64,000 nucleotides of DNA from Halothiobacillaceae bacterium UBA5861 (GTDB lineage: Bacteria; Pseudomonadota; Gammaproteobacteria; UBA5861): contig DJFX01000047.1 in assembly GCA_002432635.1 (NCBI GenBank), positions 320,766 to 384,765 on the forward strand. The letters are read 5' to 3'. Below the pieces are notes generated by a model. It ran no database searches. It was not told the DNA's origin and saw nothing but the letters and a program-made list of their open reading frames with translations. Positions 53,370 to 57,339 of the stretch are shown here, piece after piece. Every line of letters begins with the position of its first letter. Position 1 is the stretch's first letter. A program made the translations under genes and the position numbers.

Positions 53370-54491
53370 CTAGCCCGACCGGGTAGGTAAAACCACGACA
53401 CCGCCACCTTCACAGGAAATCTCATCATCCTGAGTGACAGCTCGAATTTCGACGGCAACCATGAACTTTCCATCTTTTTCATATTTATCGGTCACTTGTC
53501 CGCTGATAGTAAGCAGATCACCCACAACATTATGCCTGCGAATACGGGCATTTAGCTTGTATAGCCAGCCATCATCACCCATCCAGTTGGTTAAAATGTG
53601 TGTCATCCAGGAAATACGCTCTGGGCCGTAGTCGTAAGGTGCAGGTGCACCAACGCGAGTCGCGAGCGCATCTTCCCAGTGAACTCGCTCAGGGACATCC
53701 GGAATATTTTGAGCATTTGGAATGGATGCACTCGGTGCCTTTTTCAGCAGTTTGTAGAGTAACTTGTGTGAACGAATAAAAATTCCTCCCCAACCCTGTA
53801 CAAAAGCAAGAAAGCCCGTCACGGTCATCGGACCCTTTAGAATGGATGGAATTGCATCGCCAATTTTGACATCTTCCCAATAAAGTGTCTCACCACCACG
53901 GACATATTCGTTGATGTACTGCTCCGAAATCGCTTCAATTTCTGCGTCGGTATAGCGCTTATCCAGCTTGATATCTTCGTATTTCTTACCTTTTTCACGG
54001 GCAGAATCTCGCTCTGTACGAAAAGCCCACTGTTCGCATTCCGCGACTTTTTCATCATCTTGGTTAAAGAAATCGAAGTGAACAATCTGTTGAATGGACT
54101 TCCCGGAAAAGCGCGTTTTATGTTCGACTAAATCTTTCAGGTACGATTCTGTACGTATTTTTGTGCCAACTGGCATCGGTAAGTGCCAGGTCCAATTACC
54201 ACCGGCATACATTGCATGAATACCCGGCAACCCGTGGTAGGCATTCATTGGTGTCATCGCATGTAAAATACTGGGCGGTGCAATATTATTTTTATATTTG
54301 GATTGTTTACCGTATTCGCTGTCCAACCAGAGCGGGTTATCATCACCAATTCCGTGTGCGTAGTGACGAATCGCGTCTTCGTTACACTCGGTGAGCCACA
54401 CCACCGTATTTTCCATTTTTTTGCCAATGGTTTTACGCAACTCTTCGACCGCTTGATCGGAGATTGCCGGGAATCTACTCTCTGTGGACAT
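53370..54491 (-). CDS. double hotdog-fold MaoC-type acyl-CoA hydratase/dehydratase (itaconyl-/mesaconyl-CoA hydratase-like architecture)
   Basis: 373 aa with two hotdog halves; C-terminal MaoC signature region. Confidence 0.6.
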   Translation of the reverse strand: MSTESRFPAISDQAVEELRKTIGKKMENTVVWLTECNEDAIRHYAHGIGDDNPLWLDSEYGKQSKYKNNIAPPSILHAMTPMNAYHGLPGIHAMYAGGNWTWHLPMPVGTKIRTESYLKDLVEHKTRFSGKSIQQIVHFDFFNQDDEKVAECEQWAFRTERDSAREKGKKYEDIKLDKRYTDAEIEAISEQYINEYVRGGETLYWEDVKIGDAIPSILKGPMTVTGFLAFVQGWGGIFIRSHKLLYKLLKKAPSASIPNAQNIPDVPERVHWEDALATRVGAPAPYDYGPERISWMTHILTNWMGDDGWLYKLNARIRRHNVVGDLLTISGQVTDKYEKDGKFMVAVEIRAVTQDDEISCEGGGVVVLPTRSG

Positions 54492-54507: not shown

Positions 54508-56982
54508 TTAATAAATTATTTTCTTCTTTTTTAATTGTTCAATCGTTGATTGTTCCAAGCCAAGAATCTTGTCATAAACATAATCATCGTGCTCCCCTAG
54601 CAGAGGGGCCGCACTATAGATATCCAATGGAATCTTGCTCATTTGCCAGGGTATTCGGTACAGGTCTATCTCACCAAGCAAGGAATGTTTAGCCGTTTGG
54701 CGGAGCTTGCGACTGGCAAAGTGCGGGTGCTTGAATTGCTCTTCGATGGACAGTAACGGGGTTGCAGGTACACCTTCATCGCTCAACCTCTCTGCAATGT
54801 CATCCCGGTTTTGCTCGGCTGTCCATGCGTTTAAAGAATGCTCAATGCGGACTTCGTGTGCACGCCGGTCCTCCAACGTGTCAATATCATGCCACTCAAC
54901 CGGCTCCCCCATTATTTTTTTCAGTTGCCTCCATTGCTGATCGCTTTCCACGCTGATTGCAACCCACTGGTCTCGTCCGGCACATTGAAAATGACCGTGA
55001 GGTGTGAATAGCGGATGTGGGTTGATGGTTTTTTGAGTGCGCTTTGGATTATCTCCATTCCATTGAGTATCAATCATTGCCTCGGCAATGGCAGAAGCAC
55101 CGACTTCAAGCTGGGAGAAATCAATGTATTGTCCCTGCTGACTTTTCCGCCGGTGATACAATGCCGCCAGGATTGCATAAAGTGCGTGAATCCCTGCACT
55201 CATATCATTCAGCCCAAAATTGAGCATGCCAACAGGCGCTTCCCCCGGATACGCGAGCAAGGACTCAAGCCCCGAATACCCTGATAACACCGGTGCATAA
55301 CCTTTCAAGTCAGCGATGGGGCCGGACTGCCCAGCGCTTGATAGTGAAATCATCACCAGATCGGGACGTACTGTCTTTAATGAAGTGTAATCCAGCCCCA
55401 GTTTTGCAAGCGTACCCGGCGTGAAGTTTTCCAGCACAACATCGCTCTTGGCAACCAGGTTACGCAGCAGCTCTGCACCTTCTTCTGTTTTGATGTTAAG
55501 GCGAATGCTGAGTTTGTGGCGATTGACTTCATGGTAGAAAGGACCAAGTTCAATTGATTTTCCAGGTATTCGAAACAGCTCACCATCAAAGGTAGGGGCT
55601 CCTCTCAATCGGGCATTATCAAGCCGTTTCGTATGTTCAACTTTGATGACTTCCGCACCCAGGTCTGCGAGAAAGCCGGCCGCAAATGGGCCAGCCCAAA
55701 CCCATCCCAAGTCCAGTACGCGAAGCCCTTCGAGGGGGCGTTTGATGCTTTGCCTATGCGGAGTTTCCATGTTTGCTCGTTGGGTGAACTCTGAGCGGAT
55801 ACTGACGTTATGCTCCCCAAGTCGAGGGGGTGGTTTTAATGGCGGAACCGAACCACCGCTAAATTGAAATGGCATTTTGGGGATCTTCACTGGACCTCGC
55901 TCTACCATATCAAGTGTTCTAAAAAACTGGCGATGGGCAAATTGTGCTTCTTCAAGCGCTTGCCCAACGGTATTGACTGGCGCCATTGGAAAGCCCCACT
56001 GCCGAGCGAGTTTAAATAATTCCTGTTGTGTATAACGGGCAATCAATGGGCTGATTAATGCGTCAACTTCAGCGGAATAGTCCCGCCCCATCGCCACTTG
56101 GTCACGGTAGCGAGGGTTGTCCGCCCAATCCGGATTACCCATCGCCTTTAAAAACTGATCCCAGTCACGGGTAGACCTCGCAATCATCACAACCATGCCA
56201 TCTTTGCACGGGTAAAGCCCAAGTGGATAAGGCCCCATCGTGCCAAATGCCTGGTGCCCAGCTCGTTGCCACTGCAGGCCGTAGTAAATCATCAAGCTCG
56301 ACTGGATACCGGCATAGTTGGCCAAAATATCAGCCACTGATATGTCAATGAACTGGCCGCAACCGGTATCATCCCGCTGGATAAGTGCTGCCATTACAGC
56401 GGCGGCGGCATGCACGCCTCCTTGTGTATCCGCAAGAGTCAGTGGTAATTGCAGTGGTGCTTTATCGGGTGAACCAATGGCCCATGATGTCGATGACAGT
56501 GCGCTGGCATGTATTGCTGAGCCCAATCGGCCAGCGTAAAGTCCGGCCCAACCAAAATTACTGATTGCACAATAAATCAGGTGTGGATGCGTTTGTTTCA
56601 GGCTGTCGTAATCAAGACCGGCTTGCATCAACGCACTTTTATCCAACGCAGTTAAAAAAATATCACTGGATTTTAGGCGCTCAGCAAGCCACAGTTGGTC
56701 GCTTCTATCATCAAAATTAATGGTGATGGACTCTTTTCCGGTATCAAGAAAAGTGTGCAAAGCACTTTGTTCAATCTCTGGCTTGTCCTTTGGAAAGGGG
56801 CCATAGTGGCGGGCCAGCTTGCCATTAAAGGGTTCAAGCGAGATGACCCGGGCACCCATTTCAACAAGCAAGTGCGAGGCGTAGGGGGCTGAAGCAAGCC
56901 CACCCACTTCAATAACCGTGATTTCAGATAAGGTTTTATAGATATTTTTCATAGCATTAGAAATCAAAATCCCAAAAACCAT
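54508..56982 (-). CDS. tandem-fused family III CoA-transferase (two complete CaiB/BaiF/Frc-like domains in one 824 aa chain)
   Basis: Two repeats each beginning with a Rossmann-like L(x)VIEVGG / LRVLDLGW motif and each retaining a catalytic-Asp loop (ADTQGG; NDMSAG). Confidence 0.8.
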   Translation of the reverse strand: MVFGILISNAMKNIYKTLSEITVIEVGGLASAPYASHLLVEMGARVISLEPFNGKLARHYGPFPKDKPEIEQSALHTFLDTGKESITINFDDRSDQLWLAERLKSSDIFLTALDKSALMQAGLDYDSLKQTHPHLIYCAISNFGWAGLYAGRLGSAIHASALSSTSWAIGSPDKAPLQLPLTLADTQGGVHAAAAVMAALIQRDDTGCGQFIDISVADILANYAGIQSSLMIYYGLQWQRAGHQAFGTMGPYPLGLYPCKDGMVVMIARSTRDWDQFLKAMGNPDWADNPRYRDQVAMGRDYSAEVDALISPLIARYTQQELFKLARQWGFPMAPVNTVGQALEEAQFAHRQFFRTLDMVERGPVKIPKMPFQFSGGSVPPLKPPPRLGEHNVSIRSEFTQRANMETPHRQSIKRPLEGLRVLDLGWVWAGPFAAGFLADLGAEVIKVEHTKRLDNARLRGAPTFDGELFRIPGKSIELGPFYHEVNRHKLSIRLNIKTEEGAELLRNLVAKSDVVLENFTPGTLAKLGLDYTSLKTVRPDLVMISLSSAGQSGPIADLKGYAPVLSGYSGLESLLAYPGEAPVGMLNFGLNDMSAGIHALYAILAALYHRRKSQQGQYIDFSQLEVGASAIAEAMIDTQWNGDNPKRTQKTINPHPLFTPHGHFQCAGRDQWVAISVESDQQWRQLKKIMGEPVEWHDIDTLEDRRAHEVRIEHSLNAWTAEQNRDDIAERLSDEGVPATPLLSIEEQFKHPHFASRKLRQTAKHSLLGEIDLYRIPWQMSKIPLDIYSAAPLLGEHDDYVYDKILGLEQSTIEQLKKKKIIY

Positions 56983-57080
56983 GATGGATTATTTTCTTTA
57001 ATAGCCACTATAGATGAACAACCCGTTTTGAATCAAAAGCAGGATGACTTCATTTTGACATCAAGCAACTGACGTTTATA

Positions 57081-57197
57081 AACCAACAAACAGGTGTTGC
57101 AACCGCAAAGGCGGCAGGTGTCAAACGATGACTTGAATATTCAGCAAGGTAGGCCTGAATCACTTCATCAAGCGTCGCATAATGGGCGGTTGAAAAC
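57081..57197 (-). pseudogene. diverged duplicate fragment of glk (about residues 31-68 of the glucokinase at 61619-62629), frameshifted
   Basis: ~86% nucleotide identity by eye to 62418-62536, with 1 nt deletion. Confidence 0.6.
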
Positions 57198-57211
57198 ATT
57201 GGATATATGCT

Positions 57212-57331
57212 TCGAAAGGGAGTGTCATCCTCAACCCGGCGGGTTCAGAACATTCGGTTTGGCCTGAGCAGGGTTGTGTTATTTTGATTCACTGGGAAAA
57301 GCCGGTCGCATTCATCAACACTTTTGATGAA
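57212..57331 (+). pseudogene. diverged duplicate of the 3' end of the cupin gene (52882-53238)
   Basis: ~92% nucleotide identity by eye to 53108-53226. Confidence 0.65.
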
Positions 57332-57339
57332 GCAACGCC

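Follow-up and report, generated by a model that had tools for sequence, protein, structure and literature searches.

A two-domain family III CoA-transferase, read from its sequence as a fused alpha-beta heteromer, and its double-hotdog partner gene

Domain organization of the ORF

An open reading frame (ORF) of 824 codons and a stop codon (54508–56982, minus strand), located in a 64,000-nucleotide stretch of the Halothiobacillaceae bacterium UBA5861 genome (the window), encodes a fused two-domain family III CoA-transferase. A preliminary description had proposed two complete family III domains in a single chain, each with an Asp at the nucleophile position, and both points were confirmed. The PF02515 CoA_transf_3 profile matched the ORF in two stretches with 578.8 bits (gathering cut-off 23.3), and the two halves could be aligned with each other at 26% identity (E 6e-35). 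The canonical nucleophile position, where the long central helix begins, was occupied by Asp in both the N half (D185; codon at 56428–56430, minus strand) and the C half (D593; codon at 55204–55206, minus strand). D185 could be aligned with D593, and both with the corresponding Asp of SUGCT, 4ed9, and the Brucella formyl-CoA transferase.

The true start codon is probably Met11 (56952), which gives a protein of 814 aa. The N half, of the alpha-subunit type, covers residues 11–400 (55783–56952, minus strand), and the C half, of the beta-subunit type, covers residues 417–824 (54511–55734, minus strand). The linker between the domains (residues 401–416; 55735–55782, minus strand) varied in length and sequence, showed 25% identity and a dN/dS of 0.43 against an 84%-identical orthologue, and fell in a region of low pLDDT.

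Split relatives and integrity of the reading frame

The closest relatives beyond the immediate orthologues were split genes. A betaproteobacterial operon (L087/L088) consisted of genes for GntR, a 387-aa CoA-transferase, a 410-aa CoA-transferase beginning 5 nt further downstream, a hotdog protein with 70% identity to that of the window, TctC, and DctP. Identity was 54% between the 387-aa protein and the N half and 62% between the 410-aa protein and the C half, compared to just 27–30% in the cross-matches. The tandem domains of the preliminary description thus correspond to two different subunits, alpha and beta, that were fused, and not to one domain that was duplicated. Most fused homologues (35–46% identity) were further from the window protein than this split pair, and approximately 30 stand-alone relatives of the N half were found at 38–55% identity. 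A scan of species-representative genome contigs yielded no close relative, the best match having 36% identity. Since the closest relatives are split alpha and beta genes followed by the same hydratase gene, the ORF represents, by sequence comparison, the fused form of an alpha-beta heteromer like BbsEF and SmtAB.

Because the split genes are separated by 5 nt alone, one sequencing or assembly error could in principle have joined two neighbouring genes into this ORF, and a frameshift or a hidden stop had been named beforehand as the case that would speak against a fusion. This was not borne out, and such an artefact can be regarded as practically negligible. The uninterrupted frame was identical in three independent metagenome assemblies that differed from one another at 2–4 nucleotides, and it was also unbroken in orthologues with 77–85% and 46% identity, as well as in over 1,400 further proteins. 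A coding linker of 16 residues takes the place of the intergenic gap. Moreover, strong purifying selection was evident on both the N and C halves (dN/dS 0.09 and 0.06, respectively). The intact ORF in the three assemblies together with this selection excludes a frameshift artefact, and the orthologues further refute a fusion by assembly error.

Relation to known CoA-transferases

The preliminary description had regarded the architecture as unusual, a view that could not be upheld. A class of two-domain proteins with 2,401 members in 2017 has been described (PMC6006322), the DMSP CoA-transferase/lyase DddD, of approximately 820–870 aa, contains two CaiB domains (PMC7174347), and more than 1,400 relatives were matched in our homologue search. 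Thousands of bacterial proteins thus share the fused architecture, and the ORF adds one uncharacterised member to this known class. It resembles the described class in its two CoA_transf_3 domains in tandem, in a catalytic Asp retained in the C domain, in the weak conservation of the linker, and in conservation peaking at the N-termini of the domains (PMC6006322). However, the clade of the window protein lies outside the thioacid group of that class and has neither an acyl-CoA synthetase partner nor the gene surroundings of DddD; the gene conserved beside it codes for a double-hotdog dehydratase, and the proteins nearest to it are alpha/beta pairs that are not fused.

Among the characterised systems compared, the top sequence match of both halves was SUGCT (PDB 9br6; whole protein E 1.7e-54), with the Asp loop aligned, although SUGCT is a single-domain homodimer. 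The top NCBIfam model was likewise succinate-glutarate CoA-transferase (NF052585), which the whole protein matched with 404 bits (cut-off 750 bits) and the two halves with 161 and 248 bits. The window protein is therefore not a SUGCT equivalog, and none of the NCBIfam equivalogs (succinate-glutarate, succinyl-CoA:mesaconate, Frc, YfdE, CaiB, and Mct) reached its cut-off, all scores lying far below.

Heteromeric family III CoA-transferases include BbsEF, the succinyl-CoA:(R)-benzylsuccinate enzyme (PDB 9fn0/9fol), and SmtAB, the succinyl-CoA:malate enzyme. PDB entry 9fol bears the title 'D178-CoA adduct'. In both systems two paralogous subunits are coded side by side, as in the split orthologues of the window protein; the window protein differs in that its subunits are fused and in that its identity to BbsE and BbsF is just 23–31%. 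Position 178 of 9fn0 chain B is an Asp, one column off D593 in an ungapped HMMER alignment.

The AlphaFold2 model consisted of a single confident body (pLDDT 91, pTM 0.94), each half of which superposed on a whole chain of 9fn0 (TM 0.93 for chain B and 0.85 for chain A); we take chain B to be BbsF and chain A to be BbsE. Chain B was the best match of the C half (TM 0.93, compared to 0.85 for chain A), and SUGCT and BbsF were the best PDB matches of this half. When the whole protein was used as the query, 9fn0_A matched the N half only (region 21–395) and 9fn0_B matched the C half, whereas the N half alone scored nearly equally against the two chains (3.3e-24 and 2.6e-22). The halves may interlock as a pseudo-heterodimer, in which each pocket would be built from both.

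Unequal conservation of the two sites

The preliminary description had suggested two non-equivalent catalytic sites, and the comparison of homologues supports the non-equivalence. Among 40 two-domain homologues, the D593 column contained Asp in every one, while the D185 column contained Asp in 12, Glu in 24, His in three, and Ala in one. Glu was also found at the D185 position in the four nearest fused orthologues (77–85% identical). Conservation by segment followed a crossed pattern, in which the large domain of the C half (0.62) and the small domain of the N half (0.66) exceeded the large domain of the N half (0.48) and the small domain of the C half (0.53). The Rossmann/CoA-binding region of the C half was strongly conserved; the Rossmann domain of the N half was the least conserved part of the protein, with 2% invariant columns, and the small domain (approximately residues 237–323) was the best conserved part of that half. 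The idea that both sites are catalytic thus holds as far as both positions carry Asp in the window protein, but it is weakened by the variable N-half position, including Glu in the nearest orthologues, against the invariant Asp of the C half. Asp at the N-half position was nevertheless kept, together with a GD..R.YGPFP motif, in the window protein and in all 11 stand-alone alpha-type relatives with at least 49% identity, and also in the split alpha subunit of L087. Hence, the N-half site may be active in the clade of the window protein.

The double-hotdog neighbour and the locus

The gene adjoining the ORF, which had been read beforehand as a double-hotdog hydratase, was confirmed to code for a protein with a MaoC-like double hotdog fold. 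This 'acyl dehydratase' of 373 aa (53370–54491, minus strand) is co-transcribed with the transferase; its start lies 16 nt past the transferase stop codon, with GAGGAA as the ribosome-binding site. The hydratase-2 motif G-D-x-N-P-[LIV]-H contains a catalytic Asp/His pair. The motif His was absent from the window protein, in which the corresponding sequence is GIGDDNPLW with Trp55 at this place, and GDDNPLW was invariant in 32 homologues. Since Trp replaces the catalytic His, the chemistry of the hotdog protein may not be canonical hydration. Other invariant His residues occurred at ORF positions 92, 138, 271, 298, and 320.

The pairing of transferase and hotdog genes was also observed at L001–L004, L087/88, L010, L040, and other loci, which include the 84%-identical (L001–3) and 46%-identical (L004) orthologues and several loci of Dehalococcoidia and proteobacteria. 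Elsewhere, the hotdog family is paired with CoA ligases or single-domain CoA-transferases, and such partners suggest that the family acts on CoA esters. In the window, the operon consists of these two genes only. A crotonase, an EamA transporter, and an acyl-CoA dehydrogenase follow the operon in the 84%-identical orthologues but are missing in this genome, where the other neighbours are a sugar ABC transporter and a cupin/isochorismatase operon. The upstream intergenic region (56983–57339, minus strand) contains a 119-nt remnant of a glucokinase gene (57090–57207) and a sigma-70-like site (57036–57007, minus strand) that was not above chance; the promoter and terminator scan revealed nothing exceeding shuffled expectation. 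The G+C content of the two genes (0.47–0.51) was the same as that of the flanks, so that composition gives no sign of recent transfer.

Proposed function and alternative explanations

Taken with the fusion origin, the asymmetry of the sites points, with somewhat better than even probability in our estimate, to a fused alpha/beta heteromer in which Asp593 of the C half and the small domain of the N half form the obligatory active site and which moves CoA to a dicarboxylate. The two halves would fold into one pseudo-heterodimer, and the obligatory site would combine the Rossmann domain of the C half, with Asp593 and the CoA-binding residues, and the small domain of the N half. A CoA thioester, most likely succinyl-CoA or acetyl-CoA, may serve as the donor. 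The acceptor would be a free carboxylic acid and probably a C4–C6 dicarboxylate, with CoA transferred via Asp-anhydride and Asp-thioester intermediates. The translationally coupled double-hotdog enzyme would then hydrate or dehydrate the acyl-CoA product. The reciprocal site of the N half (Asp185) would be an auxiliary or second site at most. A dicarboxylate substrate, as already suggested in the preliminary description, is plausible: succinyl-CoA:dicarboxylate transferases, among them SUGCT and BbsF, provide the best sequence matches and the nearest of the characterised relatives, and TctC and DctP binding proteins are coded in the split orthologous operon. The assignments of substrate and CoA donor are guesses at this stage, as every NCBIfam equivalog score was far under its cut-off.

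A bifunctional pseudo-dimer, in which Asp185 and Asp593 are both catalytic with differing specificities, appears unlikely, at perhaps one chance among several. For example, CoA could be loaded from the donor at one site, with the second site acting on the hydratase product; the operon would then hydrate a free unsaturated acid with recycling of CoA, by a logic like that of CaiB/CaiD or AcuN/AcuK, or run an intramolecular shuttle. The Asp at both positions, the N-site Asp and Arg-containing motif kept in the L087 alpha subunit and the stand-alone relatives, and the strong purifying selection on the N half are compatible with it, and a transferase and a hydratase, the sole genes of the operon here, would suffice for a recycling cycle. 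However, Glu at the N site in the four nearest orthologues, the D/E/H/A variation beside an invariant C-site Asp, and the poor conservation of the N-half Rossmann domain argue against it, and a structural role of the N half and the lid it gives to the C site would account for the selection equally well. The analysis provided no support for the intramolecular CoA shuttle of the preliminary description. It is rather improbable that both sites are live in the clade of the window protein and that the transferase and the atypical hotdog protein form a self-contained CoA-recycling machine. If so, a free unsaturated or hydroxy dicarboxylate would be converted with no CoA donor consumed on balance, since one site would unload the product of the hydratase and the other would load the substrate; we know of no family III enzyme for which such a division of labour between two sites has been shown. 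Known pairs of transferase and hydratase include CaiB/CaiD, AcuN/AcuK, Ict/Ich (itaconate), and the succinyl-CoA:mesaconate CoA-transferase with Mch; CaiD and AcuK are crotonases and not hotdog proteins. The window pair differs from these in its identity of just 10–17%, at fold level, in having no lyase gene, and in the Trp replacing the motif His.

Two further functions known from two-domain proteins are much less probable. A DddD-type enzyme, studied reportedly by Todd in 2007 and Alcolombri in 2014, would cleave DMSP to DMS and 3-hydroxypropionyl-CoA; among two-domain family III proteins DddD is the best known, and it is similar to the window protein in size and in its two CaiB-like domains and occurs in marine Gammaproteobacteria. 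The window belongs to an uncultured marine gammaproteobacterium, and among the cluster members of its proteins some are labelled Porticoccaceae, the family to which SAR92 belongs. DddD is carried by SAR92-clade gammaproteobacteria, and in SAR92 and Marinomonas dddD is grouped with dddT, dddB, dddC, iclR, and lysR (PMC10746254). None of these five genes was present near the ORF, in the window or at any orthologous locus, and no ddd context was seen at the most divergent homologue (P0106). The gene conserved beside the ORF instead codes for the hotdog dehydratase, and in the closest relatives alpha and beta are separate genes beside those for TctC/DctP carboxylate-binding proteins. No DddD-named family was matched by the window protein in the NCBIfam search and no DddD-named match resulted from the plasmid tblastn; the comparison with DddD was otherwise one of gene context. 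DddD is also reported to fall outside the remaining two-domain proteins, as their outgroup (PMC6006322), and overall this function is very improbable here. A PtmU4-type enzyme, which moves sulfur onto an acyl-CoA to form a thioacid, has the same two-domain architecture and conserved C-domain Asp (PMC6006322), but it seems still more remote. Its cassette is defined by an adjoining PtmA3-like acyl-CoA synthetase, whereas no AMP-binding gene lies beside the ORF or its orthologues, and the locus holds no biosynthetic cluster.

The value of the fused heteromer reading is modest. The architecture itself is no discovery, but the 'fused' CoA-transferase can be presented as the covalent form of an alpha-beta heteromer, with a clear prediction of where the chemistry would reside (Asp593 of the C half with the small domain of the N half). 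The literature search revealed no characterised module of a two-domain transferase and a MaoC protein. The pair of transferase and double-hotdog genes occurs widely across Proteobacteria, Dehalococcoidia, and other groups and is still uncharacterised, so that thousands of genes would gain an annotation once its substrate is named.

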